Shown piece by piece: positions 6,366-57,556 of a DNA stretch of 64,000 nt. Origin of the DNA: Candidatus Poribacteria bacterium (GTDB taxonomy: Bacteria > Poribacteria > WGA-4E > PCPOR2b); contig CBDBMC010000001.1 of assembly GCA_965207095.1 (NCBI GenBank), positions 4,625,575 to 4,689,574 on the forward strand, written 5' to 3'. Within the stretch, counting starts at the first letter, position 1; every line of letters begins with the position of its first letter. Made by a program: the position numbers and the translations under genes. Under the pieces are notes generated by a model that was not told where the DNA came from, ran no database searches, and saw nothing but the letters and a program-made list of their open reading frames with translations.

Positions 6366-7946
6366 ATGAACGTTGGCACCCACAAACAACTCTTTATCGA
6401 CGAACGCTTCTTTCAGACTCGCGAGGGTATCGAGTTGTGCATGAATCCACCTGTTCAGGATCCCACACCTGTGCTCATAGCGGACCAACCGTGGGAGGCA
6501 AAGGGCATAGGTGCTTACAGCACAGCCTTCCGCGAACCCGACGGCAGATTTCGCCTCTGGTATGATGCGCTTCTCGGCGTTGGGACGCCTCAAGAGAGTG
6601 CCCGCCGCCTGTGTTACGCCGAATCAGAGGATGGCCTCCACTGGGAGAAACCGTCGCTCGGTCTTGTCCCCTTTCGTGGTTCCACTGCAAATAACATCGT
6701 TGCTCCTCTCCTTGAACGCCAGAGCATGCAGGGAGCCACTGTGTATCGCGACGAACGCGCCTCGGCTGATGAACGTTACAAGTTGTGGAGCAAGTTCCGT
6801 CCTACTGACTCTCAGATCGCAGCGGATATTCGGAGCGGACTCTGGGCGATGCACTCGCCCGACGGTATTCACTGGCAGGCGTATCCCAACCAGCCTAACC
6901 CACCTAACCAGTCGTGTGATACTCAGAATATGTTTTTCTGGGACGATACCATCAAATGCTACGTCGGCTACACACGAGTTAGAGAGACCCAAAGCTCCGA
7001 AGAAGCTGCCCTCGCCGGCAAAGTCGCTTACCGGAGTATCGGCCGCATCACCTCGCCCGATTTCCGCAGTTGGTCGAGCACTCAGATTGTTCTGGAGGCA
7101 GATACAGAGGATTTAGCTATCCCCGTGCCTTCACAGTCTGATGACCAGCGTCCGAGCATCGACTACTACACCAGTTGTGCAATGAAATACGAAAGTGTCC
7201 AAGATGTGTATCTGATGTTTCCCTCAGTCTACTACCACTGGGGTGAGAATGGTTTTCCCGCAACCATGGATACACAGCTATTGACCAGCCGCGATGGCAT
7301 TAATTGGCGGCGTCAGGGCAACCGCCGTCCTTTCCTGCGACACGGGCTGGACGACGCGGTTTACAGCGGGATGCTTTTCGCCAATCCGTGGCTCATCCCT
7401 GTGGACGACGAACTGTGGCTGTACTATGCTGGCATGGCTCACAACCACGGTGCGGATCCTGACGATGTCGGGCGTTCCAGCAGCCTTTTTCGTGCACGCA
7501 TACGCCAGGATGGATTCGTCTCTGTGGATGCGGGTTTTGGCGGCGGTGAGTTCATCACGCCGGTGCTCCAGTTTGGCGGCAATCGCCTTGAGCTAAATCT
7601 CGATGGAAGTGCCGGCGGCTGGCTCCAAGTCGAAATTCAGAACGCGGATGGACAGCCGTTGCCCGGCTTTAGGCTCACAGAGGCAGATCCAATGGTGGGA
7701 AACGCGATCGGTAAAACTGTGACATGGCAAGGCAAAGACGACCTGAGCGAACTTGTTGGTCAAACGACCCGGCTGCGCTTCGTTCTGCGCGATATGAAAC
7801 TTTACGCCTTTCTTATAGTGAATTCGTACTCTCCAAAAATTAAGAAACCGTACTCAAGAATTATTACCCACGACCAAGATAGGGCTGCTCCACCGGCACC
7901 ACCTTCGCTTCAAGCATATTCACATTCGGCGGTAAGGTCGCCATAA
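6366..7946 (+). CDS. Hypothetical protein, putative glycoside-hydrolase-like beta-propeller fold
   Basis: 526 aa with an N-terminal KQLFIDERF motif. The family-like sequence ends around ...RLRFVLRDMKLYAF. The last roughly 48 codons overlap the convergent SDR gene and may be a read-through artefact. Confidence 0.4.
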   Translation: MNVGTHKQLFIDERFFQTREGIELCMNPPVQDPTPVLIADQPWEAKGIGAYSTAFREPDGRFRLWYDALLGVGTPQESARRLCYAESEDGLHWEKPSLGLVPFRGSTANNIVAPLLERQSMQGATVYRDERASADERYKLWSKFRPTDSQIAADIRSGLWAMHSPDGIHWQAYPNQPNPPNQSCDTQNMFFWDDTIKCYVGYTRVRETQSSEEAALAGKVAYRSIGRITSPDFRSWSSTQIVLEADTEDLAIPVPSQSDDQRPSIDYYTSCAMKYESVQDVYLMFPSVYYHWGENGFPATMDTQLLTSRDGINWRRQGNRRPFLRHGLDDAVYSGMLFANPWLIPVDDELWLYYAGMAHNHGADPDDVGRSSSLFRARIRQDGFVSVDAGFGGGEFITPVLQFGGNRLELNLDGSAGGWLQVEIQNADGQPLPGFRLTEADPMVGNAIGKTVTWQGKDDLSELVGQTTRLRFVLRDMKLYAFLIVNSYSPKIKKPYSRIITHDQDRAAPPAPPSLQAYSHSAVRSP

Positions 7947-8586
7947 GTACCGCCGCTTGAGCCAATTCCTCCACCTGCATCAGATCTGTTCGTTCATCGC
8001 CCTCTGGTAACTCCCTGACCTGTGTGGCACCCGGGTGCAGACAACTCGCAACGATTCCATGCGGACGTCCCTCCAAGGCTGTCACCTGCGTCAGTCCCCA
8101 AATACCAAATTTAGAGGCGCAGTAAGGTCCCGCTCCGGGTCGAACCCGCTGTGCGGATATACTACCGATGTTGATAATACGTCCGCCGCCCTGCTGCTTC
8201 ATAATCTGCATTGCTGCGCGCGTACACAGGAATGGCGCACGGAGATTGACCGAAAGCACGTTATCTAAGGCTTCCGTCGAAAGCTCGTCAAGCGGACCAC
8301 CATCAAACGCCCCCGAATTGTTGACCAAAATATCTAAGCGTTTGAACGCTTCCATCGTGTGCTCAAACAGCGCTTCGATTTGTGCCTCATCGGTGACATC
8401 GGTCGGTACGGCAAGCACCGTCGTGCCACCCTCCCTTAGTTCATCGGCTGTCTGATTCAATTCTTGAACACCCCGCGCAGCTAACACAAGGGTTGCTCCT
8501 TCGTCTGCCAAGCCGCGTGCGATGCCCTTGCCAATTCCTCTGTTACCTCCTGTGATGAGCGCAACCTTATCATCTAGCTTACCCAT
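7864..8586 (-). CDS. Short-chain dehydrogenase/reductase (SDR) family oxidoreductase
   Basis: 240 aa. TGGNRGIGKGIA cofactor-binding motif, the NNSG motif, and a catalytic YxxxK (YCASK). Confidence 0.85.
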   Translation of the reverse strand: MGKLDDKVALITGGNRGIGKGIARGLADEGATLVLAARGVQELNQTADELREGGTTVLAVPTDVTDEAQIEALFEHTMEAFKRLDILVNNSGAFDGGPLDELSTEALDNVLSVNLRAPFLCTRAAMQIMKQQGGGRIINIGSISAQRVRPGAGPYCASKFGIWGLTQVTALEGRPHGIVASCLHPGATQVRELPEGDERTDLMQVEELAQAAVLMATLPPNVNMLEAKVVPVEQPYLGRG

Positions 8587-8630
8587 TAGATACTCCTTTC
8601 GTTTTCCTCCGATGCTACGAAGTCATTATA

Positions 8631-8775
8631 GTAGATCTCAGAATTAATGAAACACTCCAAATTGGTAGGCGCTGTTTCCAACTGCGCCGTTTCAACTCAA
8701 CCAACGGTGTGTATGCGGTGCGGTTAGAAACCGCACCTACCGGGGAGCGAAAGTGTCTCTTTATTTTTAGAATTC
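8631..8775 (+). mobile_element. MITE-like element, family 1, copy A
   Basis: About 145 bp. Imperfect terminal inverted repeats TAGAATTAATGAAACAC ... GTGTCTCTTTATTTTTAGAATTC. Flanked by the direct repeat CATTATA (8624-8630 and 8776-8782). Contains two inverted copies of the 25-nt module GYGCRGTTGGAAACMGCRCCTACC. Near-identical copies at 11392-11511 (inverted) and 19991-20084. Confidence 0.7.
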
Positions 8776-8830
8776 ATTATAAACTGGATTGTTTACGCTC
8801 CACCAAGACTTGATGCTATTGATGTCCATG

Positions 8831-9376
8831 TTAAGGTGCTTGCAACTGCTCTTGAAGCACCCCCATCTCTTTTTTATTCAATCCTAACAGATAAATTGGG
8901 AGCGGCAACATCCAATCTGCGTGCATGTAGCGGTCGATCTTCATCTTCAGATCAGTGTTCTTGTGCATTAGTTCCAAGTGAAGTTCAGTAGAACGCGTAC
9001 GCTCCGCTATGGGTTCCGAAATTTCCTTTGCATAGCGAGTGAGTTGTTTTATGCGCTTCTTCCTCGACACTCCCTCTTGGCGTAGCTTTTCATTCCGTTC
9101 AATCACTTGGGTTAGAATTTCTTGATAGCTTTCGACTGTAGCCTTGACCGCGGGCACGTCGGGAAATTCATTGAGAAAATCTTCGCTCCACTCTTCTAGC
9201 TGCACCTTTTTTTGCGCTAGGTCTGCTTCCAACTGGTCCTCTTGGGTTGTCCAGCGCGTTCCGAAATAGAAACCAGCCGTGATGAGCATAACTACGAGAA
9301 CCGACACAATTAATCTCATTCTCGGTTTGGTAGATAGGATATCCATTAGCTCCAACTCCTTTAATAGTTCCAACAC
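8831..9376 (-). CDS. Hypothetical membrane-anchored coiled-coil protein
   Basis: 181 aa. One N-terminal TM helix (LIVSVLVVMLITAGFYF) followed by charged heptad-like sequence. Its stop lies 22 bp upstream of the neighbouring membrane-protein gene. Confidence 0.5.
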   Translation of the reverse strand: MLELLKELELMDILSTKPRMRLIVSVLVVMLITAGFYFGTRWTTQEDQLEADLAQKKVQLEEWSEDFLNEFPDVPAVKATVESYQEILTQVIERNEKLRQEGVSRKKRIKQLTRYAKEISEPIAERTRSTELHLELMHKNTDLKMKIDRYMHADWMLPLPIYLLGLNKKEMGVLQEQLQAP

Positions 9377-9397
9377 CTTTTTCCTAACACCGGTTTA

Positions 9398-11311
9398 CTA
9401 GGGGAAGAAGCTATACAGCGGGGTGTTGGTTAGAATACTCAAGATGCTCCAGATAAACCCGACAATATAGTCCCCGAGCGCGACGCCCAGAAAGAAAGGC
9501 ACCGCCCGGCGAAAGGAACCAAGCCCACCATATCGCAATATAATTGACTTAATCACCCAAGCGACAAAGATACAGGACCATAGGTTGAACATCCCCCAGC
9601 TATCCGCTGTCACATAGCCGAGCGGGTGGAGGGGCCACCATAGAAACCGTGTCCGTAAGAACATCAGCACCGCTGTCAATCCAAATCCACCGGCCATAAA
9701 CGCAAGGGCGGGACCGTCAGCCTCCCGCGGGTAGTTCAGCCAATTTTCGAGTTGACCGTACGCCATACGTCCGTACCACAACGAATGTGGGTGGAAATGT
9801 GCGGAGTCATGCCCATGTCGGTAGAATGCGTCTAATAGAAACCAAAAACTGACAACCACTCCGATTGCCGTTGCAAGTAGAATAGCGATCGATGTATGAC
9901 GCAGGTTGATATTGCGTCTTTCCGACATCTTGAACGCTTCCAGATGTTCCGGCATCGGATTAACCCAATAGGCACGATTGAAAAACATATACATCGAAAA
10001 GACGGTAAGCGTATTGGTAGTAAGTTGCCACGTGCCAAACCCGGTAACAATCATGGTGTGTGGATCGATACCCGGACGGTAACCGTGCCCGTGAACGATG
10101 AAGCCGAGCTCCGCACGCAATCGGGTAATCATAATCGATAGCAAAAAATAAATCGCAAAGAAAATAGGTATTACCCACAACGACATACCGGCTTTGTAAG
10201 AGAAGACGGTCAAGAAGATTATACCAAACACAATGCCTATCACCGCCAAACGATATGGCATCGGCTCACGGCGGTCATCCAGCTGAAAGCGGGAGTTAGA
10301 AGATGTGAATAGATGACGGACTAACCCGATGAAATGCGATCTACCGATCCAGAGCGCAAAAACCAGCAATCCCATATACACGCCGAAGCCTTGTTCAGCT
10401 GCATACGGAAAACGCGGAAGGTTCTGCCACCCCATCATATCGCCGATCATTAATTCGATCTTGTAGAGCCAGAAAAACGCCCAACATGAAAATAGGAGAT
10501 CTCGCGGCATCATAAAACTCATGCCGATAACGAATGGGTAGAAAGAGACCCGGATTCCACCCCCGATCCCCTGTCGTTTGACAGGGATATACGGAATAAC
10601 AGGGTAGACAGAATGGAGTAGATTAACGATACTAATCAGCGCGGCGATACTGAAACCGATCCACATAAGCCGATTCCTGAAGAAACGCAACCGCGGATTG
10701 GTCATCTCTAAGGGTAGTTGCGTCAGCGGGTAACTTAACCGTTCATGCTCAGTCCACTGAATCCGCAATAGTGTGTTGATGCAGAGGAGTACAAGCATCA
10801 AGACAAAGATGAACGCACTCCACGCGGCGATTGGAGTGAGCCATGCCTTCAGAAAACGGGCATTATATAGGCTTGAATCCCCTTCATAGTAGCCGAGTAG
10901 GGTTTTTTCGTCTGAAACGGTGAGCCACTCTGGTATATTCCGCCAAAAAAGATTGCGCCAGTCGTTTTCCGGGGTGGCAAACTGAAATGGATAGCTCATG
11001 ATTGGCATTAAAATCTGCAGCATATCCCACGAACAGAGACAGGAAACGATGCACAACATGAAATGGACGGTCAACAGTTCCTGCTGAGAGATACCAAGTT
11101 TTGGAGAGAGCTTGTGGAGTACATATCCAATCAGCAAAAGCCAAAAAATGATAAAAATGACATTCGCCTGAGGATGGATGATTGTTGGGTAGCCAACGCG
11201 AACTACTTCGAGTTCAATAAGCCACCAAACATTGAAGGGAATGAGCACAAGGGCAAGTAGGAGGGACTTAAGCGTTAGACCGCTCTGGTAAGTGCCGGGC
11301 GTGTTTTGCAT
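9398..11311 (-). CDS. Large polytopic integral membrane protein of unknown function
   Basis: 637 aa with more than 12 predicted hydrophobic helices rich in aromatics. No family recognisable by eye. Confidence 0.6.
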   Translation of the reverse strand: MQNTPGTYQSGLTLKSLLLALVLIPFNVWWLIELEVVRVGYPTIIHPQANVIFIIFWLLLIGYVLHKLSPKLGISQQELLTVHFMLCIVSCLCSWDMLQILMPIMSYPFQFATPENDWRNLFWRNIPEWLTVSDEKTLLGYYEGDSSLYNARFLKAWLTPIAAWSAFIFVLMLVLLCINTLLRIQWTEHERLSYPLTQLPLEMTNPRLRFFRNRLMWIGFSIAALISIVNLLHSVYPVIPYIPVKRQGIGGGIRVSFYPFVIGMSFMMPRDLLFSCWAFFWLYKIELMIGDMMGWQNLPRFPYAAEQGFGVYMGLLVFALWIGRSHFIGLVRHLFTSSNSRFQLDDRREPMPYRLAVIGIVFGIIFLTVFSYKAGMSLWVIPIFFAIYFLLSIMITRLRAELGFIVHGHGYRPGIDPHTMIVTGFGTWQLTTNTLTVFSMYMFFNRAYWVNPMPEHLEAFKMSERRNINLRHTSIAILLATAIGVVVSFWFLLDAFYRHGHDSAHFHPHSLWYGRMAYGQLENWLNYPREADGPALAFMAGGFGLTAVLMFLRTRFLWWPLHPLGYVTADSWGMFNLWSCIFVAWVIKSIILRYGGLGSFRRAVPFFLGVALGDYIVGFIWSILSILTNTPLYSFFP

Positions 11312-11391
11312 AAGGTCAATTCAGTTGGTCATTTTAGACGGTTGGGGTTCAACCTTCCAACCGGATTCGTCTGGGTTATCAATGTTATGGT

Positions 11392-11511
11392 GGATTCTAA
11401 AAATAAATGAACACTTTTGCCCCCGGTAGGTGCCGTGGTAGGTTGAAACGGCGCAGTTGGAAACAGCGCCTACCAATTTGGAGTGTCTCATTAATTCTAA
11501 AATTTACTATA
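11392..11511 (-). mobile_element. MITE-like element, family 1, copy B (inverted relative to copy A)
   Basis: Reverse complement aligns with copy A end to end, with an internal deletion of about 30 bp. Together with copy A it brackets the two membrane-protein genes. Confidence 0.7.
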
Positions 11512-11631
11512 AATTCTATTGCGGGGCAAGATGCCCTGCCTACAGGACAGCGTCTGCAACGGCTGACAGATAGGACAATGACAGTCGGAAGTGCGTAAGT
11601 CCTATTCTGGCTAGGATTCACAAGGGTCTCT

Positions 11632-14600
11632 TTAATCCTGATTAGGTGTGACGATAACGCGTGTACCGTCAGAGCGACCTCGGACCGTTTCTCTGTACAT
11701 CATCTCTGCCTTTGCTGGCGGATGGACGAAACTCCCCGCAATACTCACCTTCAGCCGGAAGTAAAAGTCATAGGTTCCCTTGGGGAGCGTGTCGTAATAA
11801 AAAATTACCTCGTCATCTTTATACTGTGCGTAGGCAGGCATTCGTGTCATCGTCCCCGCAGGTTTGGCTGCTTTCGAAGCGGTGGCAAGATTGGGATTCA
11901 TCGGCTCAAAACCGGCGGCAAAGGGTGCGGACACTGCGACATAGTGCCTCCGTTCCGGGTTTACTACGCGGATGTGTTCCTCCACGATAGTCCCGATCTC
12001 CAGCTCAAGAACTTCTCCCGCCTTGACAGGACGCACGATGGGTGGTTCGTCTTCGTTTTGGATAATCTGAATCCGCCGTTCGACGACAAATCCTTCGTTT
12101 TTCCCGGCGACCTGATCGCCGCTCGCTGCTGGCATGTAGTCGAGTGTTAACCGTGCATAGGGCATGTTATCGGTGGGTCCCGATTGCCACATCACGCCAC
12201 CGGGAGTAGAAGCAACCGTTTCATACTGACTGACGTTTTTTCCGTGGGTGTCAAACTCCATAGACTCCGACCCGAATTGCAAGATTAGCTGATGCCCCGT
12301 TGACGGCGGTGGTTGTAGGCTCAATACTTCGCTCAAAGCGAGCAGGGCGGCGGCATTGGCGTTTGTGTTGCCCCAGCCGTTTGTATCTCCCCGAGAAATC
12401 AGTTCGTTAATTAGCAACTGCGTTTTCGGCTCTTGCGGAGAGGCGGTGTAGAGCGATCTGGCGACGCTCGCAAGCGTCTTGACCTCACTGGAATTGATTA
12501 ATCCGCCCCAGCTTCGCGCCCGATACTGTAGCCCTTGATAGACTTCTTCCCCGGTCTGGAGCGCGAAAATCAAACTTTTTGAGAGATCGTCACGGATCCG
12601 ATTAATCGACTCGGTTTCATCTGATGCCTCTGTGAGAAAGGCGTATAGAACTTTAGCCTCGCTGTAGAGGTCCAGCGTCAATGCGTGAGCGAGTAGGTCG
12701 TGCGCGTATGCATCTTGGAAGTCACCGGCCATGGCTAAGGCATGGAGCGCTTCGGCACGCTCGACATACGATTGACCATCGATAAAATTGGTGTAGTCCG
12801 AGTGTAGAGAAGCTTTCAACGCGTCAAGCCCTCTTTCCAAGAGCTTCTCGTCAAATTCATACCCTTGTGCCTTTGCCATCAACAAGAATTCCACCACATA
12901 GGCGGTTAGGCTGACGTAACTGTCGGAGCCGGGCCAATAGCTGTAAAGCCCGTTGGGTTGGAGCACAGTCTCCAGATAGTTAAAGTTCTCGCGGATTGAC
13001 AGATCAATAGCTTCCGCGCGATCACCCCGACCAATCTGATCGAGCAGGTTTTTGAGTGCCAATTCAGGCATCAACTGGCTGATGCGCTGTTCAGTACAGT
13101 TATATGGGTAACGCGCCAAGTAATCGAGTCCTGATAACATCTTCACCAGCGCGGGTTGATAGGTCAACAATACAGACTGACGAACTGTTCCCGGTCTTGG
13201 CTCGTCTTCAAGGGAGGGAAAGGAGATTGTTTCCTCCGGTTTCACCTGCACAAAGGTTTCCAACCGACGTTTCTCGCGGTCGTCCCTGACTGGAAGTGTT
13301 ACTTCAAACGCGTCAGTTGCTCCATCAATTTCTCTCATGACGGCAAGCCGTACCTTCATTCGATTAGTTTCGTCATTAATGAGCACGACTGTAGGAACTT
13401 TCATTGGAAAGTAGAGTTGTTCAGGTTTATCCTTCATCCAGTCCACTTGGCGGCGCGTCTCACCGCTCACCTCCAATCCTTCCACCTGAAGTTCGACGAG
13501 TCCCGGTCCACCTTCACCCTCAACGACCCGACCGATACCACCTGCGACAAAACTATCGCCCGGACGCACAAAGCGCGGCAGTGCAGACTGAACAATCAAT
13601 GGCAGACGGATGGAAAGAACAGATCTGGCGAAACCGAAACGGGCAGCGCCATCGGTGGCTACAGCTCGGACAGCAAAATCGGTCAGATTATCGGGCAGGT
13701 CAATGCTAAGTGTTGCAATACCGTCAACCACCTGCACACGGGGATTGTAATACGGAACGGGCTGAAAGTTTTTCCGTACCGTTACCTCACCAAACAATCC
13801 GCCCTCTGCGGAATACGATAAAAGTATTCCATCCCCGCCGGGGGTTTCGTTCACGGTCAGATTGCCGACAACTTCGTTTCGGGTGTCGCGAATGCGGAGG
13901 TGCGCTTTCACCTCGTCAATGAAGGAAGGCACAGGATCAAGCCGTTTCTCTCGGCCGAGGGCAAGGACGGCCCGGTCTACGAGCCAGAGGGTGACTTCGC
14001 CGTTTAATGGAGCTCCATCTGGATCACTGAGCCTGACGGTCATCGGCATAGATACACCGGGGAGATTTTGGGCGGGATGATCCAATTCAACCTTGATTTG
14101 GTTATCCCGCGGGTTCACCTGAATCCAAGCGGTGCTTGCCATTGTTATCGGTTTGGCAGCATCGACCGTAGCTCCATCAGGCATCTGCATTCCTTCGAGC
14201 CGTCCACGCAGCAGCAGCGCATGTACGGGCACACGCGGGGTCATGTCTCCGCTGATTGGAAGAGGGAAAACCCCCTGACCGTTTTCTATCTCAACCCAAT
14301 GGTACTGGTTGGCCTTTGGTCCTTCCACGATAATCAGAGCATGTGCCTGCTGAAACGGACTCTTTAGGAGCAGGTTGGCTGTCTCGCCCGGATCGTATAC
14401 GGTTTTATCGGGTGTTGTTTCAAAGACGTTTGCCTTGGGTTTCTCCCACGCCACGGGGGTATCGCCCGCGACATAAAGATCAGCAGACACGCTTTGCCGT
14501 CTGCCGAGTCTGTCTTGGGCTTCAATTTCAACGACGTAAACGCCTGCTGCTTCGACAGGCAATGATAGTCCCGTCGGTTCAGCGGTTGAAATCAGAGTTT

Positions 14601-15810
14601 GTTGAATCAGGGGAACATCTACTACGTCGGTTACGTACTCCGCTTTTCCGGTGGTAAAATCGCTTTCCTTGAGATACGAATGCCACTGACGGTGCATCAG
14701 CCGCAGCTGGAATTCCAGCCCTTCCAGCGATTTAGCTTCATGATCGAGCACCAAAACTTCTGGGTTGATGATTAGTGTATCTTTGAGAAACCGCTCCAGT
14801 TTCAATCCGAGAATGAAAGCCGGTACAGCTAATACGCGCTTTGAAGCTGTGACGGTTTGCTCATCGGCGCCCCACACCGTCGTTTGCACCAAGTAACGGC
14901 GAGCTCTACCATCTGGATCCAAGGCGGGGTTCAGTTCCAGCGTTGCTGAACCTTTTTCGTCCGTGACCTCTTGTTTAGAGCTGCCTGTTCTGCGGAACGG
15001 AGTGCTGTCGCTAAACCGCTGATCGGTCGAAAACAGAAAACCTGGATATTCATCCGGAGTTTTGAAGGTATGAGGAAATTGCGCAACGTCCCAATGCACT
15101 TGCTGCCCGACCACCCTGCCGCCCGCATAATAATCAGCGGTCATGGTCAGCGTGAATGCCCTATCGGTCGGCACCGTATCCGGTCCAAACAGTTGAACTT
15201 CAAATCGAGGGATACGATAACTTTCTTTTGAGAAATCGACAGAGGCAAGATTCTGCTGATCGGCATCATCAAAAATGATTGCCCGATACGTTCCTGTAGG
15301 CAACTCGGTCTCATCAAATTTGTGATAAAAACTGCCGTGCTGCGTAAAGGTAAGTGGATACCTCCACTTTTTGTCTCCCGGTCCTTCCACCACCAGACTT
15401 CTTCTCCGATCTGGCTCATATCTGAGGTCTCCCCTTTGCCGCAGACGTAGATACCCCTTGATGTGGACGGGTTCTTCTGGGCGATACACCGGACGTTCTG
15501 TAAAAATATGTGCTTTCTGCACTGGTATGTCTTTGATTTGCCGTGGCTCGCTCCTCAACCAAGCGAGCCAACCCCTACGTGATCCATACCAGTGGTTATC
15601 CAGAAAGTGTGGAGGTGGTTTCGCAGGATTGATTGTCAACACATCCCCTTTGTGACTGATCACGATGCGGCGTAGATGGCCTTCAACCTTGCCGGTATGC
15701 AGATAACGATACTGGCCCGTGCTGTCAGTGACGCCTGAAATAATTGGCTTCCAAGCCTGGTCCGAATCTCTATAATCTCGTCCTTCCACGAGCACCTGTG
15801 CTCCACCCAC
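11632..15810 (-). CDS. Alpha-2-macroglobulin family protein, C-terminal 1392-aa segment (thioester-containing)
   Basis: Contains the thioester motif in YPYNCTEQRISQ (CxEQ). It follows directly from the ORF at 15770-17377, in a different frame. Confidence 0.75.
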   Translation of the reverse strand: MGGAQVLVEGRDYRDSDQAWKPIISGVTDSTGQYRYLHTGKVEGHLRRIVISHKGDVLTINPAKPPPHFLDNHWYGSRRGWLAWLRSEPRQIKDIPVQKAHIFTERPVYRPEEPVHIKGYLRLRQRGDLRYEPDRRRSLVVEGPGDKKWRYPLTFTQHGSFYHKFDETELPTGTYRAIIFDDADQQNLASVDFSKESYRIPRFEVQLFGPDTVPTDRAFTLTMTADYYAGGRVVGQQVHWDVAQFPHTFKTPDEYPGFLFSTDQRFSDSTPFRRTGSSKQEVTDEKGSATLELNPALDPDGRARRYLVQTTVWGADEQTVTASKRVLAVPAFILGLKLERFLKDTLIINPEVLVLDHEAKSLEGLEFQLRLMHRQWHSYLKESDFTTGKAEYVTDVVDVPLIQQTLISTAEPTGLSLPVEAAGVYVVEIEAQDRLGRRQSVSADLYVAGDTPVAWEKPKANVFETTPDKTVYDPGETANLLLKSPFQQAHALIIVEGPKANQYHWVEIENGQGVFPLPISGDMTPRVPVHALLLRGRLEGMQMPDGATVDAAKPITMASTAWIQVNPRDNQIKVELDHPAQNLPGVSMPMTVRLSDPDGAPLNGEVTLWLVDRAVLALGREKRLDPVPSFIDEVKAHLRIRDTRNEVVGNLTVNETPGGDGILLSYSAEGGLFGEVTVRKNFQPVPYYNPRVQVVDGIATLSIDLPDNLTDFAVRAVATDGAARFGFARSVLSIRLPLIVQSALPRFVRPGDSFVAGGIGRVVEGEGGPGLVELQVEGLEVSGETRRQVDWMKDKPEQLYFPMKVPTVVLINDETNRMKVRLAVMREIDGATDAFEVTLPVRDDREKRRLETFVQVKPEETISFPSLEDEPRPGTVRQSVLLTYQPALVKMLSGLDYLARYPYNCTEQRISQLMPELALKNLLDQIGRGDRAEAIDLSIRENFNYLETVLQPNGLYSYWPGSDSYVSLTAYVVEFLLMAKAQGYEFDEKLLERGLDALKASLHSDYTNFIDGQSYVERAEALHALAMAGDFQDAYAHDLLAHALTLDLYSEAKVLYAFLTEASDETESINRIRDDLSKSLIFALQTGEEVYQGLQYRARSWGGLINSSEVKTLASVARSLYTASPQEPKTQLLINELISRGDTNGWGNTNANAAALLALSEVLSLQPPPSTGHQLILQFGSESMEFDTHGKNVSQYETVASTPGGVMWQSGPTDNMPYARLTLDYMPAASGDQVAGKNEGFVVERRIQIIQNEDEPPIVRPVKAGEVLELEIGTIVEEHIRVVNPERRHYVAVSAPFAAGFEPMNPNLATASKAAKPAGTMTRMPAYAQYKDDEVIFYYDTLPKGTYDFYFRLKVSIAGSFVHPPAKAEMMYRETVRGRSDGTRVIVTPNQD

Positions 15811-17377
15811 AGGCGCTACCGGTGCTCAGAGAGGTCACGACAAAGTTAACTGCTGAATCCTCCTCAACCGTGCTGAGACTCAAATCGGTTACCTGAATCC
15901 GCGCGTAATCTCGGTGAGTGCTGCTGCCTATTTTACGGTAACCGAGAAGGTATGTTCCCGGCTGGTCTGCACCGGAAATTTTCGTCAATAACGTTTTCAG
16001 CTCGATACCAAATCGGAGATTGCCCGCTCGGTCTTTCATGGGTAGAGGGATTAGCCGGGAGACGATTGGACTGCCGAGCAGCTGGATGTGTTTTGGCATA
16101 TTTGTATCGAACTTGGGCTCCTCTCCGGGTCCCGGTGGACGCGCTTCTTCATTGACTCTCACAGGTTTGTCTGGAAAGGGCCAAAAATTCCTATCTAGGG
16201 GATTCAGTTTATATATCCGGAGATCGAGTTGTTCTTCACCGCGTCCTTCCATGGGGAATTTCTGCGCGCCGTACCGTTCAAGAATCCCTCTGCTCTGCCC
16301 CCACCGCAGATAGGGATCGGCATGTCTATAATAAAAATAGAGAGCGGTATCCCCGAAGCTCGATAGATCTCTGCCGTTTCTGTCCGTCAAATTCGTTTGC
16401 TGAAGTGTAAATCGGTAGGTCTGATCTCTTTCAGGGCTAAAGTGGAGATTGAGGCGCTTCCCAGAAACCGAAAAACGGAAGTTCTTCACGGCGGGCTCAA
16501 ATCGTACCAGTTGCTTCACTGCCGCCATTGAAATGGAGCCCAGCTCATGGCTGAATTCGAGGAAGAGCGGCTCACTGCCTCCTCCGCCTTCGAGTGGTTG
16601 CTCTATCGGATAAACGCTACCTCTGGCGGCAACGGGAAAGACGACGCGCCCGCAACCGATGCCGGTCAACCTAAAGGTAGTTTGCGTTGCAAAAGTGTAC
16701 CGAATGAGTGCCCCTTTTAGACGCTCGTCCAATGAGAGCTGCAACGTCATAGTCACCACTCTACCGTAAGGAATAGGATTGTCAAAAGTAATCTGGTACT
16801 GGACGGCATCTTGAATTGATTTTCGTTCGACCTCCTTTACAGTGAAGTTTTCCCTCATTAGCCTCACAGACGCCGGCATTTTCGTATCATTGATGGCTGC
16901 TAGTCCCGGAGCTTGGCGCACTTCAAAACGAAGCATCGCACTCAACTCATCAACGTTCAACCGGTCTGCAAAGGATAGCAGTATCTCCTGAATGGGTTCC
17001 AGTTCTCGACTGCCACTGGCTGGTGAGATACTTGTCGGGGTTGCCATCAACGTAACAAGGGTGTGTACTACACCGTTGGCGGTTAGCGTGAATCGTCGGA
17101 GGGCGGGCCAACGCACGGTGGGAAGGAACTGTAGGGTTTTGTCGTCTAACCATCGATACTCACCGGGATGGTCGGGCTCAATTTGAAGCAGCTCACCGGG
17201 ATCATCTGCCGACTGGCTGTCGTTCGGTCCAACAGTTTCAGGGAAAAAGATGGTAACAGGATCGTAGCCTCTCAGGAAGATTTCGGGAACAACGGTCACT
17301 GTCTTCTGACCGAATGCGCCCCCAACCATATTCAGCATAAGGACTAAACTGGCGATAAATGTAGCTTTCGTTATCAT
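15770..17377 (-). CDS. Alpha-2-macroglobulin family protein, N-terminal 535-aa segment with signal peptide
   Basis: Signal peptide MITKATFIASLVLMLNMVGGAFGQ and MG-domain-like repeats. It overlaps the downstream ORF by 41 nt in another frame, consistent with a single gene of about 1915 aa split by a 1-nt frameshift near 15790-15830. Confidence 0.7.
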   Translation of the reverse strand: MITKATFIASLVLMLNMVGGAFGQKTVTVVPEIFLRGYDPVTIFFPETVGPNDSQSADDPGELLQIEPDHPGEYRWLDDKTLQFLPTVRWPALRRFTLTANGVVHTLVTLMATPTSISPASGSRELEPIQEILLSFADRLNVDELSAMLRFEVRQAPGLAAINDTKMPASVRLMRENFTVKEVERKSIQDAVQYQITFDNPIPYGRVVTMTLQLSLDERLKGALIRYTFATQTTFRLTGIGCGRVVFPVAARGSVYPIEQPLEGGGGSEPLFLEFSHELGSISMAAVKQLVRFEPAVKNFRFSVSGKRLNLHFSPERDQTYRFTLQQTNLTDRNGRDLSSFGDTALYFYYRHADPYLRWGQSRGILERYGAQKFPMEGRGEEQLDLRIYKLNPLDRNFWPFPDKPVRVNEEARPPGPGEEPKFDTNMPKHIQLLGSPIVSRLIPLPMKDRAGNLRFGIELKTLLTKISGADQPGTYLLGYRKIGSSTHRDYARIQVTDLSLSTVEEDSAVNFVVTSLSTGSACGWSTGARGRTRL

Positions 17378-18698: not shown

Positions 18699-19856
18699 CT
18701 AGCTGTTAGTAATCGATCCATCGCGCCGGCGGAGGAAACGTCTGCCCTCACTCTGCGCAGGGTTGGCAAGTGCAAATTCCTCATTGAACTCAACTCCAAG
18801 CCCCGGCAATTCAGGGACTGGAAACCGCGACCCTTCAAGTTGAGGTTGAACCGGAAACAGGTCCGTATTATACCGTTTCGTACTTTCGGTCGGCGATTGC
18901 CTTATCTCCATCCAGGCGAAATTTGGCACCGCCGCCGCCAAGTGAATCGTCGCCGCGGTACAAACTGTCCCCAGAGGATTGTGCGGCATGAGGTCAATAT
19001 AGTGTGCTTCTGCCAAACTGGCGACCTTCGCTGCCTCCGTCAAACCACCGACATTGCAGACATCCAACCGGACGAAATTGGTGATACCCCGTTCAATATA
19101 GGGCAGAAAATCCCATTTGTTCGAAATCTCCTCCCCAATTGCGAAGGGCACATCCACCATCGTCCGCAACGATTCATACGCCTCCGGTGTCTCATCTCGG
19201 ATCGGCTCCTCCAAAAAGTCAAGTGTTCCGGGAGGCATCCGTTGACAGAATGAAGCCGCTTCCGCAACATTGAGACGGTGATGATAGTCGATACCAAGTA
19301 CAGGCTCGGAACCAATCGCCTCGCGCAACTGCGTCAACCACTCCGCGGTCAATGCGATTGATTCACGTGGCTCGAAAATATTTTCCTCGCTTTTGGGCGC
19401 TGACCGTGCCATCCCTGTCCGGATGACGTTCCAACCGTTGTCAATCAGAAGCTTGGCATCAGCAATCAACTGTTCCGCTGATTGAACCTGTGTTGTTGCA
19501 AAGCAGGGAACATAGTCGCGTTGTTTCCCGCCAAGCAGCTGATACACCGGAACCCCCAAAGCTTTACCGGCAATGTCATGCAGTGCAATGTCAATCCCAG
19601 AAATAGCGGCTGTGAGGATACGTCCGCCCTCGAAATATTGGCTACGATACATCTCCTGCCACAGTGCACCGATACGCATCGGGTCCTTACCCAGCAGAAA
19701 TTCACGAAAATGCTGAACTGCTCCAATCACAGCCAAGGCACGTTTTGCAAGTCCTGTCTCACCGACTCCATAAATACCCACATCGGTTTCCACTTTCACA
19801 AAAAGCTGGTTGCCATCCGCCGCCACCGGAAACGTTTTTATATCAGCAATCTTCAT
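18699..19856 (-). CDS. Enolase-superfamily enzyme (mandelate racemase / muconate lactonizing enzyme, D-galactonate dehydratase-like)
   Basis: Start MKIADIKTF, preceded by a strong AGGAGG RBS. The N-terminal capping domain and the barrel-domain acidic metal ligands (IDYHHRL ... EEP) are typical of MR/MLE enzymes. Confidence 0.8.
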   Translation of the reverse strand: MKIADIKTFPVAADGNQLFVKVETDVGIYGVGETGLAKRALAVIGAVQHFREFLLGKDPMRIGALWQEMYRSQYFEGGRILTAAISGIDIALHDIAGKALGVPVYQLLGGKQRDYVPCFATTQVQSAEQLIADAKLLIDNGWNVIRTGMARSAPKSEENIFEPRESIALTAEWLTQLREAIGSEPVLGIDYHHRLNVAEAASFCQRMPPGTLDFLEEPIRDETPEAYESLRTMVDVPFAIGEEISNKWDFLPYIERGITNFVRLDVCNVGGLTEAAKVASLAEAHYIDLMPHNPLGTVCTAATIHLAAAVPNFAWMEIRQSPTESTKRYNTDLFPVQPQLEGSRFPVPELPGLGVEFNEEFALANPAQSEGRRFLRRRDGSITNS

Positions 19857-19990
19857 GAAGTGTCCTCCTGTATAACTTCGATATTTCAATTGACTCAATT
19901 TATCCATCGTGGTATATTTTTTATTGTACCCAGTTTCGGTGATTTGCTCAACACAATTAATCATTCGGTGCTAACCTACCACAATATTAT

Positions 19991-20084
19991 AGTAGATCTT
20001 AGAATTAATGAGACATGCCAAATCGGTACGGTTAGAAACGGCACCTACCGGACGACGAAAGTGTCTATTTATTCTTAGAATTCA
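19991..20084 (+). mobile_element. MITE-like element, family 1, copy C (shortened)
   Basis: Keeps both termini (TAGAATTAATGAGACA ... GTGTCTATTTATTCTTAGAATTCA) and one GGTACGGTTAGAAACGGCACCTACCGG module. Lies in the divergent promoter region between the racemase-family gene and the Sel1 gene. Confidence 0.65.
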
Positions 20085-20193
20085 CCATAAATAAAACGAA
20101 GGCGACCCACAATGACCGAACATGTGTGGAGGATTGAGGCCGCGAAACAGGGCGTACAAAATATCGAATCCTATAGATACTGGGGGGCAAATT

Positions 20194-21678
20194 ATGTGCC
20201 ATCCAGCTCAGCGAGTTATTCTCTCGGTTTTGATGATGTGCCTACTCACCACTGCATCCGTGTGGGCGGATTATCAGGCGGGTATGGATGCTTATGAACA
20301 AGGGGATTACGAAACTGCATTACAAGAATTTGAACCACTCGCCGAGAGCGGGAACACGAAGGCTCAGTTTTATCTTGGGCGGATGTATGCAAGGGGCAAT
20401 GGCGTCCCTAAAGACGACGCGAAGGCGGCAAAACTATACAAGGAAGCCGCTGAGGGCGGTGATACTATAGCCCAATTTGTTCTTGGGATCTGGTATGAAG
20501 ATGGTAGAGGGCTGCCTAAGGATAAGGGAGAGGCAGTCAAGTGGTACTATAAAGCCGCTCAACAAGGTTCTGATCTGGCGCGGTATAAATTGAGCCGGAT
20601 GTTTGCCAGTAGCGCGAACATCCTTCAGAACGACGATGAGAAGACCAATCTATACAGAGTAGCCGCCGAACAGGGCTACGCCAAGGCACAGTTCCCTCTT
20701 GGCATGATGTATCAATACGGTTGGGGCATTCCGCAGGACGGCGGGGAAGCGATCAGATGGTTTCAAAGGGCCGCCGAACACAACAACCCTTTTGCCCAGT
20801 TTGAACTTAGCCTGAGATACAAATACGGTTGGAATGTCCCTCAAGATGATGAGGAGCAAAACAGATGGCACAGCGAAGCCTTGTCTCAATTCCATGTCCT
20901 GGCTTGGAATAAACAATTTGACCGGATGCTCCGCAATTACGAGGAAACCGCTCAAGAGATTGAAGAAACACTCGAATGGTATCGAACAGCCGCCGAACAC
21001 GGTTACGCCAAAGCACAGTTCCGCCTTGCCAAGCTGTATGAATACGGCTGGGGTGTTCCCCAAGATGACGAAAAGGCAGCTAGGTGGTATCGCGCAGCAG
21101 CAAAACAGGGTGATGTATATGCCCAGTTTGAACTCGGCGTGAGATATGAATATGGCTGGGGGGTTTCGACGAACAACGAGGAGGCAGCTAAATTCTACCG
21201 CAAAGCTGCCCAACAAGGCTACCCCCAAGCCCAGTACAGACTTGGCATGAAGTATAAATTCGGTAGAGGCGTTACAGCGAGCAATATTGAGGCAGTCAAA
21301 TGGCTTCTCAAGGCTGCTGAACAGGGCTATGCCGATGCCCAATATGCGCTTGCTCGGATGTATTACAGGGGTGAGGGTGTCCCTCAAAACTATAGCGAAG
21401 CAGTTAAATGGTTGCACCATGTCGTTCCACAATGCCATGCTCCCGCACAACTTTACCTTGGCTGGCTGTATGAAAATGGTCAGGGTGTCCCTCAAGACTA
21501 CGTAACCGCCCACATGTGGTACAATCTCGCTGGGGCACACGGTTACGAGAAAGCCCGCGAATACCGGGATCGAATTGCGGAGAAGATGACTCCCGCCCAA
21601 ATTGCTGAAGCCCAGCGTCGGGCGCGTGAATGGAAACCAGAGAAGACTGACTCACAGACAAACGCCAACGAGAAGTAG
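20194..21678 (+). CDS. Sel1-repeat (TPR-like) protein with signal peptide
   Basis: Signal peptide MCHPAQRVILSVLMMCLLTTASVWA followed by at least 10 Sel1 units (AQFxLGxMYxxGxGVPQDxxEAxKWYRKAAEQG). The overlapping minus-strand ORF 20650-21600 is a mirror artefact. Confidence 0.85.
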   Translation: MCHPAQRVILSVLMMCLLTTASVWADYQAGMDAYEQGDYETALQEFEPLAESGNTKAQFYLGRMYARGNGVPKDDAKAAKLYKEAAEGGDTIAQFVLGIWYEDGRGLPKDKGEAVKWYYKAAQQGSDLARYKLSRMFASSANILQNDDEKTNLYRVAAEQGYAKAQFPLGMMYQYGWGIPQDGGEAIRWFQRAAEHNNPFAQFELSLRYKYGWNVPQDDEEQNRWHSEALSQFHVLAWNKQFDRMLRNYEETAQEIEETLEWYRTAAEHGYAKAQFRLAKLYEYGWGVPQDDEKAARWYRAAAKQGDVYAQFELGVRYEYGWGVSTNNEEAAKFYRKAAQQGYPQAQYRLGMKYKFGRGVTASNIEAVKWLLKAAEQGYADAQYALARMYYRGEGVPQNYSEAVKWLHHVVPQCHAPAQLYLGWLYENGQGVPQDYVTAHMWYNLAGAHGYEKAREYRDRIAEKMTPAQIAEAQRRAREWKPEKTDSQTNANEK

Positions 21679-30483: not shown

Positions 30484-30952
30484 CCTAAGTTGCTAGTTAG
30501 CCTGTATGCCGTCTTTCCACATTCGCCAACGATACACATGTCGAAAATACCCGGAGTGTTGCATAAGGTGCTAGGCTCAATGAGCCAAGAATTGACGGAT
30601 AACCCACTGGGTATTTGGGACTTGGGTGTATGGGTGATATCCACATTCTATAAACATGTCGCCCCGCTGGGGCTAAAAAACGGGGAAAGTCCTCAAACTA
30701 AAGACATTGCGCTCCGCATGAAGATTAATTTATTAATTGGGTAATTTCCGAGCGATGTCCGGTGCGGTTGGAAACCGCACCTACCGGGTCTGGGGGAAAT
30801 ATAGAATTACCCGTTTAATTTCTTAAAACCCATCTGGAGCGCAGGCATTGACCGCATCGCCGTTCTATAGACATATCGCTCCTCCGGAGCGAAAGATAGA
30901 ATCCCTCAATCTTAACGACAAACCGATGGATGCTCAACACTAGCAACTTGCG
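30484..30952 (+). mobile_element. MITE-like element, family 2, copy a (composite, 469 bp) inserted between modB and modC
   Basis: Terminal inverted repeats CCTAAGTTGCTAG ... CTAGCAACTTGCG. Internal modules include the ACATGTCGCCCCGCTGGGGCT hairpin, the GGTGCGGTTGGAAACCGCACCTACCGG hairpin, and a roughly 175-bp block (30706-30880) nearly identical to 57209-57385. Confidence 0.75.
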
Positions 30953-33250: not shown

Positions 33251-33650
33251 TAATCTAGTGAATATCGTTGGGTTTCACTGTATCTGTCTATCCGTACACG
33301 TTGAAAAAAGTCATAATGTATTTATGTGAGAAATATAGATCCGCCTTCAACCGTTTAACCCAACGTACGTGTTATACATGTTGCTCCTCATGAACATTAA
33401 AAAAACAGTTCGGCAATTTGCTATTGGCACCAGCGCGGTTGGAAACCGCGCCTACCGTGTGTTTCAAGGAAAATCGAGATTGCCGATTTAAATACTTAAA
33501 CTTCATCTGGAGCGAAAAGTTCTCGGACCACATATTGAAGTAGGACGACAGGCTTTATACAACTTCGCTTTTTGTATTGCTTAACTTGCAATATTATGCT
33601 ATCTTGCTTGAAATGACCGCCATAACTGAAAGCTCTACGGAGGACTTGAC

Positions 33651-56941: not shown

Positions 56942-57556
56942 CCTAAGTTGCTAATTAGCCTGTAGGTCGCGTTTCCGCAGTCGCCACGAATTAGACTCAC
57001 TGAAGTAAGGATACACATGTCGCCCCGCTGGGGCTTGGGTGTATGGGTGCTATCCACATTCTATAAACATGTCGCCCCGCTGGGGCTATAAGTCGGGCAA
57101 GATGCCCGACCTACAGGTATTGGGGTTTGACTTTTACTGCGTCGCACATAATTGGGGGGTGTGCATGTGTAGCAGTCTTAGTAGATTAACCGTATTGCTT
57201 GCATACACATTGCGCTCCGCATGAAGATTAATTTATTAATTGGGTAATTTCCGAGCGATGTCCGGTGCGGTTGGAAACCGCACCTACCGGGTCTGGGGGA
57301 AATATAGAATTACCCGTTTTATTTCTTAAAACTCATCTGGAGCGCAGGCATTGACCTTATCGCCGTTCTATAGACATATCGCTCCGCTGGAGCGCAGGTC
57401 TCTGTCGGATCATCAGGACTTTCGCGTGTTCGGCTTGCTGAAAGAACGTGAATCTAGTAGCAGTTTTGTTCGCTTATCGATATTTCCTGCGTAATCAGCT
57501 GCCTCCGCGATTCAAACAATAATGATGCACACCCCTCACATAATTAGCAACTTGCG
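56942..57556 (+). mobile_element. MITE-like element, family 2, copy d (615 bp composite)
   Basis: Termini CCTAAGTTGCTAATTAGCC ... TAATTAGCAACTTGCG, a roughly 17-bp inverted match. Contains two ACATGTCGCCCCGCTGGGGCT hairpins and the 175-bp block 57209-57385 shared with copy a. Confidence 0.75.

Follow-up and report, generated by a model that had tools for sequence, protein, structure and literature searches.

Two inverted MITE copies around a membrane-protein gene pair in Candidatus Poribacteria are very probably independent insertions rather than the ends of a cassette

When two inverted copies of a repeat are found on either side of a small block of genes, one has to ask whether the repeats are the ends of something that moves or flips, or whether they came to rest beside genes that were already there. 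The question arises in a stretch of 64,000 nt from a Candidatus Poribacteria genome (assembly GCA_965207095.1, contig CBDBMC010000001.1, positions 4,625,575 to 4,689,574; hereafter the window, in whose numbering all positions without a locus name are given). Here two copies, A and B, of one miniature inverted-repeat transposable element (MITE) enclose the genes of a 637-aa polytopic membrane protein and a 181-aa coiled-coil protein (Table 1), an arrangement that the initial annotation likened to a composite transposon or an invertible/excisable cassette. Our analysis argues against this: the copies are very probably two independent insertions of a high-copy, non-autonomous, Poribacteria-specific MITE around an ancestral, vertically inherited gene pair.

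The first line of evidence comes from relatives. The 637-aa protein, which matches the Pfam family DUF6785, has 1114 homologues at E < 1e-20, with identities graded down from 97%, and eight loci with close homologues cover one or both of the insertion sites. L111 (97% protein identity) has, in order, an alpha-2-macroglobulin (A2M)-like gene (its 3' part), the DUF6785 gene, the small-protein gene, a short-chain dehydrogenase/reductase (SDR) gene and an aminotransferase gene; L106 (95%) and L107 (93%) have the same type of block, as does L112 (96%), with PhyH and A2M-like genes upstream. In L113 (95%) the small gene is missing from the block and two additional genes stand upstream of DUF6785; L115, L116 and L117 (95-96%) are partial and cover the copy B site. 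The whole block of A2M-like, DUF6785 and SDR genes is thus found in five of the eight loci, with the SDR gene syntenic in all five and the 181-aa gene as the transporter gene's partner in four (it is absent in L113). No match to either end of the element (End1 and End2) or to its internal repeat unit was found in any of the eight. Since the genes stand between the same neighbours without the elements, the gene pair is ancestral at this locus and had its present orientation from the start; the elements came afterwards. The occurrence of the same two genes without flanking repeats, which the initial annotation had itself named as refuting evidence, refutes the cassette reading.

The relatives also supply the empty sites from which each insertion can be read. 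On the gene strand, the empty site of copy A in L111 is CAGTT-TA-ATCAC, against CAGTT-TA-TAATGAATTC...ATCTACTA-TA-ATGAC in the window; for copy B, L112, L116 and L117 have GAATT-TA-ACATTG, against GAATT-TA-TAGTAAAT...AATCCACCA-TA-ACATTG. As the empty sites have TA once and the occupied sites of the window have it at each end of the element, both insertions duplicate TA. A 7-bp target duplication, CATTATA, was considered and rejected, as the empty sites show TA instead. At copy A the motif is put together on one side from three flank bases that match by chance, CAT, followed by the TA duplication and the first TA of the element, and on the other from the element's closing CATTA plus the TA duplication. 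The CATTATA direct repeats that the initial annotation had described around the elements are confined to copy A, while the terminal inverted repeats and the lack of a transposase that it recorded both stand. In L106 alone, the empty copy B site (L106:5909-5937) reads GAATT-TA-TT-TA-ACATTG, with an extra TTTA that could be either a 4-bp slippage duplication or the footprint of a transposon excision.

The two copies do lie where they had been placed, in inverted orientation. A repeat search returns inverted arms at 8626-8696 and 11442-11512 (71 nt, 94% complementary, including an identical stretch of 45 nt) and a second pair at 8743-8789 and 11378-11424, and a core 33-mer has two exact occurrences in the window and none in 100 shuffles. 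Their earlier limits (8631-8775 and 11392-11511) need to be replaced by those in Table 1, which take in the TA duplications, and the description of the copies as near-identical fails, as they share 86.4% identity over 125 aligned nt and differ in addition by a 29-nt indel. The term MITE-like was well chosen: the elements are short, do not code for protein, exist in many copies, bear terminal inverted repeats and a target duplication, and are polymorphic in presence and absence. Copy A follows the stop of the 181-aa gene and ends 40 bp before the SDR start codon, and copy B lies in the spacer that leads from the A2M-like stop to the DUF6785 start; the enclosed genes are, as first described, exactly two and co-directional. 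Neither copy contains a real open reading frame (ORF) or any coding capacity, and Rfam returned no family for 8000-12500 at E values up to 1. Copy A folds as a single long hairpin (-50.2 kcal/mol, z -4.4), whereas copy B, in which part of one arm is lost, folds less well. As copy A is also present in a short-read scaffold from another sample (L114), which encodes an identical SDR and ends inside the copy with one mismatch to the window, it is no assembly artefact, and the family does break assemblies.

Each copy has closer kin elsewhere than across the gene pair. Copy B aligns without gaps to 125-bp copies at unrelated loci of other genomes (L014 and L102) with 96.8-97.6% identity, and is 97.6% identical to a longer copy in L069, at another such locus; copy A is 95.5% identical to the copy in L046 and 93.5% to that in L024, again at unrelated loci of other genomes. 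Because the closest kin of copy B, a member of a 125-bp subfamily, are at unrelated loci, its 29-nt "deletion" is a subfamily character and not a local event. Because A and B are both nearer to such copies than to each other, they are not two ends of one unit; judged by these alignments, they are from different sublineages of the family.

The abundance of the family explains how two copies could come to lie so close together. With a 22-mer of the core, GGCGCTGTTTCCAACTGCGCCG, as the probe, the matches listed contain more than 105 loci in at least 10 genomes, all of them metagenome-assembled genomes of Candidatus Poribacteria, and the flanks of the copies have no relation to one another unless the loci are orthologous. 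A third copy within the window was found by nhmmer with profiles of End1 and End2 (E 1e-10 and 9e-10); it separates two divergent genes, one of the enolase superfamily (18699..19964, minus) and one with Sel1 repeats (20122..21678, plus). This ubiquity at unrelated loci, also named beforehand by the initial annotation as refuting evidence, counts against the cassette reading as well. With three copies in 64 kb, and a density of about one element per 10-20 kb, two copies two spacers apart are unremarkable; nor is inverted bracketing special, since adjacent pairs at other loci are direct in 10 cases and inverted in 5. The bracketing arises from the high density of elements and does not define a functional unit. 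Gene bracketing like that by copies A and B is also seen at L048:1993-3069 and L077:6156-7652, where End2 and End1 face inward at distances of 1.1 and 1.5 kb; L048 also has several nested elements.

One might still suspect a switch, in which homologous recombination or a site-specific invertase flips the 2.6-kb segment and so changes the expression of both genes. The 71-nt inverted arm, with its 45 perfect nucleotides, could support a rare RecA-dependent inversion, and inversion of Correia elements themselves has been reported in Neisseria (review PMC10969869). However, a family scan of the proteins in 552-24565 found no invertase, other recombinase or transposase in the roughly 10 kb to each side, all relatives share the orientation of the window, which is ancestral, with no inverted variant among the assembled loci, and the repeats are recent independent insertions rather than parts of a conserved switch. 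We give this possibility a very slim chance.

A comparison of the two genes with their neighbours in GC and codon usage had been proposed as a check. The overall GC content of the 637-aa and 181-aa genes (0.49 and 0.46) is indeed below that of their neighbours (0.53-0.55). GC at third codon positions (GC3) is 0.57 and 0.53, however, against 0.54-0.58 in the neighbours, and the pattern is equal in relatives without the elements, which rules out lower GC as a sign of foreign origin; as GC3 is not lower and the relatives are alike, the difference reflects amino-acid composition.

We can now weigh the proposal that the copies are the ends of a composite transposon or MITE-bracketed mobile cassette that brought in the transporter and coiled-coil genes. 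Its appeal lies in the geometry alone, two inverted family members around exactly two genes, and in the slightly lower overall GC of the segment. Set against these are the presence of both genes between the same neighbours, without elements, in L106, L107, L111 and L112, a clean empty site for each copy, the different sublineages of A and B and a GC3 that does not deviate. A DUF6785 paralogue with 81% identity at another locus (L108-L110) is likewise free of such elements. We therefore consider a mobile cassette next to impossible, and independent insertion is the reading retained below.

Table 1. Positions of the MITE copies and of the genes between and beside copies A and B, in window numbering
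Feature	Position	Strand	Description
MITE copy A	8627..8781	minus (End1 to End2)	155 bp including both TA duplications
Copy A TA duplications	8627-8628, 8780-8781		element proper 8629-8779, 151 bp
Copy A REP units	8664-8688; 8717-8741	plus; minus	inverted, REPIN-like core
MITE copy B	11386..11511	plus, opposite to copy A	126 bp including both TA duplications
Copy B TA duplications	11386-11387, 11510-11511		element proper 11388-11509, 122 bp
Copy B REP content	11450-11474	minus	one intact unit and remnant of a second
Third MITE copy	19988-20089	minus	102-bp short class, one REP unit at 20025-20049
SDR gene	7864..8586	minus	Pfam adh_short, E 4e-54; downstream of copy A
181-aa protein gene	8831..9376	minus	N-terminal transmembrane helix and coiled coil (from sequence)
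637-aa protein gene	9398..11311	minus	polytopic membrane protein, DUF6785 and DUF6784 (Pfam)
A2M-like gene	11632..17377	minus	Pfam bMG10, A2M_BRD, MG2; upstream of copy B

The element is modular. When copies are aligned in register, End1 (TATAGTGAATTCTAAAAATAAATAGACACTTTCGC) is followed by one or more 25-nt units (GGTAGGYGCKGTTTCYAACYGCRCC) and then by End2 (GGAGTGTCTCATTAATTCTAAGATCTACTATA). An ungapped alignment of End1 with the reverse complement of End2 spans 29 nt and has 21 of 29 positions identical. The two ends thus form imperfect terminal inverted repeats of about 29 bp, which can be written as TA|TRGTRRATYYTARAAWTAAWKAGACAC or, in brief, as TA|TRGTRRAT...GACAC. Profile searches with both ends recovered 234 termini and 74 complete short elements, in every one of which End1 is paired with End2. 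The lengths of these 74 have modes at 100-109 bp (n=28) and 150-159 bp (n=16), while element sizes overall range from 100 to 340 bp. The elements are extragenic: only 6/74 lie inside open frames of at least 200 codons, though such frames make up 75% of the sequence.

The internal unit has the form of a repetitive extragenic palindromic (REP) sequence, that is, GTAG followed by a 7-bp stem with a 3-nt loop, and occurs seven times in the window against none expected. Copy A contains two variants, CGCTGTT/AACTGCG and TGCGGTT/AACCGCA, whose changes keep or improve the pairing. A tblastn search for a REP-associated tyrosine transposase (RAYT), with an E. coli RAYT sequence as the query and meant as a lead only, picked up 157-aa ORFs at L073:1179-1652, L042:915-1388 and L087:4303-4776. 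The first of these scores 120.6 bits with NCBIfam NF047646 (REP_Tyr_transpos), above the cut-off of 80 (E 4.9e-35), also matches Pfam Y1_Tnp (E 5e-15), and has clusters of the MITE-type REP unit on both sides (1016-1141 and 1668-1918). The RAYT genes of L042 and L087 likewise stand among clusters of the REP unit. RAYT genes with identical REP units are therefore at hand in other Poribacteria loci, outside the window.

Several further arrangements of the REP unit were encountered. The downstream cluster in L073 terminates in the End1 sequence of the MITE (about 1927-1967). Head-to-tail REP arrays with a period of 49 or 41 nt lie inside MITE shells at L054:1782-1950, L010:1728-1790 and L029:1216-1278, and suggest that the REP module grows by slippage or by repeated insertion. 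A second repeat family in the window has inverted ends of its own, GCGCTCCGCATGAAGATTAATTTATTAATTGGGTAATT ... CATCTGGAGCGC, around a central 25-nt REP unit identical to that of the MITE. Its copies lie at about 30703-30850 and 57206-57350, with a diverged copy at about 33378-33520; the limits are approximate, as the copies at 30.7 and 57.2 kb remain similar past the aligned 200 nt. The presence of the REP unit in this unrelated shell, and in bare arrays as well, is the behaviour of a module that can be separated from the MITE.

Could the whole element, then, be a REPIN-type single-strand transposon moved by a RAYT (an HUH Y1 enzyme), with the terminal TA as part of the element or the target? 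In its favour are a core that consists of a bona fide REP doublet, the existence in Poribacteria of a RAYT with identical flanking REP units, the folding of the full element as one long hairpin, and the fact that no DDE partner turned up in the loci, the window or the viral contigs. The conserved 29-bp terminal inverted repeats, however, lie outside the REP units, and the REP unit has a life of its own in other settings. The flanks of the 74 elements, moreover, give a symmetric, palindromic, AT-rich logo, a-w-Y-TA, element, TA-R-w-t. A palindromic, AT-rich target is typical of a dimeric, TA-targeting DDE transposase of the IS630/Tc1-mariner type; together with the TA on both sides at both insertions, the target fits such a dimeric enzyme and not the asymmetric insertion of the IS200/IS605 type. 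Movement of the whole element by a RAYT therefore seems improbable, and we infer that the shell was moved by an IS630/Tc1-mariner-type DDE transposase that targets TA, works by cut and paste and was supplied in trans.

For the independent insertions that we favour, the following course may be suggested. A DDE transposase of this type, acting in trans, would move the shell, and the REP modules would be passengers that expand and contract inside it and so give rise to the classes of about 105, 125 and 155 bp. At the present locus the elements would be neutral, or at most modulators of expression: on the minus-strand transcript, long hairpins could arise at 40 bp from the SDR gene and at 75 bp from the transporter gene, upstream in both cases, much as with Correia elements in Neisseria, but regulatory effects comparable to those of Correia elements are conjecture.

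An autonomous partner was sought in several ways. Two long pairs of End1 and End2 were examined as candidate insertion sequences (ISs) and rejected: that in L048 (1077 bp) encloses a gene with a YgjP-like metallopeptidase domain, and that in L077 (1497 bp) a 255-aa ORF without a family, neither of them a transposase. The sequence inward of 86 unpaired ends has nothing in common beyond orthology, BLAST of all loci against one another revealed no multi-copy segment that resembles an IS, and the matches of L037 and L082 to L108, which were also considered as an IS, proved to be ordinary genes. A degenerate inverted-repeat pattern had no match in the viral contigs. At L108-L110:7945-8400, a 151-aa fragment of a DDE_Tnp_1 (IS4/IS5-type) transposase follows the DUF6785 paralogue, without ends of the TATAGT type.

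Several points should be entered on the other side of the account, as they weigh against our explanation or parts of it. Searches of about 840 kb of Poribacteria sequence (105 loci), of the window and of the viral contigs revealed neither an autonomous IS nor a DDE transposase that has these ends. The choice of a DDE-type enzyme draws on three features only, namely the TA duplication, the inverted repeats and the symmetry of the target. Given a fixed TA target, a duplication is formally indistinguishable from the non-duplicating insertion of an element whose own end is TA. Two metagenome scans for empty, occupied or inverted variants, one with the outer flank of copy A and one with that of copy B, gave 0 matches each. 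Finally, a scan for consensus promoters and terminators gave counts no higher than the shuffled expectation, with none inside the elements.

What are the two genes in between? The initial annotation had left both without a family, and this holds for the 181-aa protein, whose matches in Pfam and NCBIfam are all below threshold. The 637-aa protein, in contrast, matches Pfam DUF6785 (E 7e-142) and DUF6784 (E 8e-36); neither protein has an NCBIfam match above the cut-off, and exact-sequence look-ups of both found none on record. An AlphaFold model of the 637-aa protein, built from a 20-sequence alignment, has a pLDDT of 75.9 and a pTM of 0.80, and in Foldseek it matches barley Yellow Stripe 1 (YS1; 7wst_A, E 2.8e-7, TM 0.67-0.70) over its full length. 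Together with 7wsr_A the matches have E 3e-7 and TM 0.66-0.70, and every other match has E >= 0.04. The sequence identity to YS1 is 13-15%, a search of PDB sequences with a 20-sequence profile of the transporter gave no match, and some homologues carry a precomputed match to PF03169 (oligopeptide transporter, OPT). The protein is thus predicted to be a secondary transporter of the OPT/Yellow-Stripe fold, for which peptides or metal chelates would be the OPT-like substrates, and on the strength of the model the DUF6785/DUF6784 family may provisionally be placed in that fold. With the OPT/YSL transporters it shares, in the predicted model, the fold of barley YS1 over the full length; it differs in that the window protein itself matches only DUF6785/DUF6784 in Pfam. 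In L113:4354-8709 the coiled-coil gene is missing and the SDR gene directly follows DUF6785, while AAA_35 and DUF8371 genes lie between the A2M-like and DUF6785 genes.

The neighbourhood deserves a brief description. In the window a 1-nt insertion near 15818 divides the A2M-like gene (11632-15810 and onward) into ORFs of 535 and 1392 aa, whereas its orthologues are intact (1911 aa). The window reads CCGGTAGCGCC where L106 and L112 have CCGGT-GCGCC, and the split gene is either a pseudogene or the result of a sequencing indel. On the other side, a 526-aa ORF (6366-7946, plus), without matches in Pfam or NCBIfam, converges with the SDR gene and overlaps its 3' end by 83 nt. Its position is taken by a 487-489-aa gene in L107, L111 and L114 and is vacant in L106, L112 and L113, which indicates a gene presence/absence polymorphism beside the locus. 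The other genes within about 10 kb are of housekeeping type (MutY-like glycosylase, YchF-like GTPase, 2-hydroxyacid dehydrogenase, DUF4159, class-III aminotransferase, PhyH, enolase superfamily, Sel1 repeats and zinc alcohol dehydrogenase).

The immediate gain is that a false lead has been removed, since there is no mobile or invertible membrane-protein cassette here, and the cassette finding itself matters little. Poribacteria are dominant uncultured sponge symbionts, and one should bear in mind that these repeats break short-read assemblies, as in scaffold L114, and that their insertion polymorphisms can be used as strain markers. The remaining interest lies in a family with Correia-like ends and a REP/RAYT core, with the model-based fold assignment of DUF6785/DUF6784 as a smaller gain. 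The literature searched contained no paper linking Poribacteria with MITEs or describing REP elements in Poribacteria, and both the MITE family and the REP/RAYT system of this phylum are apparently undescribed so far.

Three known systems invite comparison. MITE-bracketed composites, among them an integron mobilisation unit, a MITE-flanked blaPER-1 and TIME-based mosaic transposons (cited in PMC11602168), are alike in having two MITE copies around a short block of genes. They differ in that their cargo is absent from the empty sites and moves with the MITEs, whereas the cargo in the window is ancestral and each MITE has its own empty site. With the REP/REPIN-RAYT systems of E. coli, Pseudomonas and others, the units described here share GTAG followed by an imperfect palindrome, compensatory stem changes, the occurrence as inverted doublets and clusters, a high copy number, an extragenic position and the flanking of a RAYT gene. 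They differ in standing inside a shell with 29-bp terminal inverted repeats and a TA duplication, both of which classical REPINs lack.

The third, and the closest, is the Correia element (CREE/NEMIS). In Neisseria its target is TA and its main sizes are 104-108 and 153-157 bp (PMC2649163), against TA and 100-109 and 150-159 bp in the Poribacteria family. Both families are non-coding, high-copy and mostly intergenic, with the potential to form long hairpins, and a transposase has been identified for neither. Correia elements provide promoters as well as sites for integration host factor (IHF), and RNase III cleaves the transcripts made from them (review PMC10969869). The Correia repeat begins with tatagtggatt (PMC5039591), which TATAGTGAATT, the start of the present repeat, matches at 10 of 11 positions, a value reached by none of 5000 composition-preserving shuffles. 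When the whole repeat is aligned with the 26-bp Correia repeat, the score is reached by 18 of 5000 shuffles, and past 11 nt the two are only loosely alike. These statistics are optimistic, as the comparator was chosen after the resemblance had been noticed, and we therefore treat the resemblance as a lead and not as membership.

The differences are also plain: Correia elements belong to Betaproteobacteria, the present host is one of the Poribacteria, and the interior here consists of REP hairpins. REP hairpins are not known from the interior of Correia elements. With such a host, strict membership of the Correia family is unlikely. A broader idea, which we hold to be rather doubtful, is that the Poribacteria element is a true relative of Correia, moved by a common family of TA-targeting transposases, that has captured REP/RAYT substrates; it would then be a chimera of MITE shell and REPIN core, open to both DDE and HUH-Y1 transposases. 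If this were true, complete Poribacteria genomes could be used to identify the Correia-type transposase, and Correia-like termini, a TA target and matching sizes in so distant a phylum may in any case offer a handle on that enzyme.

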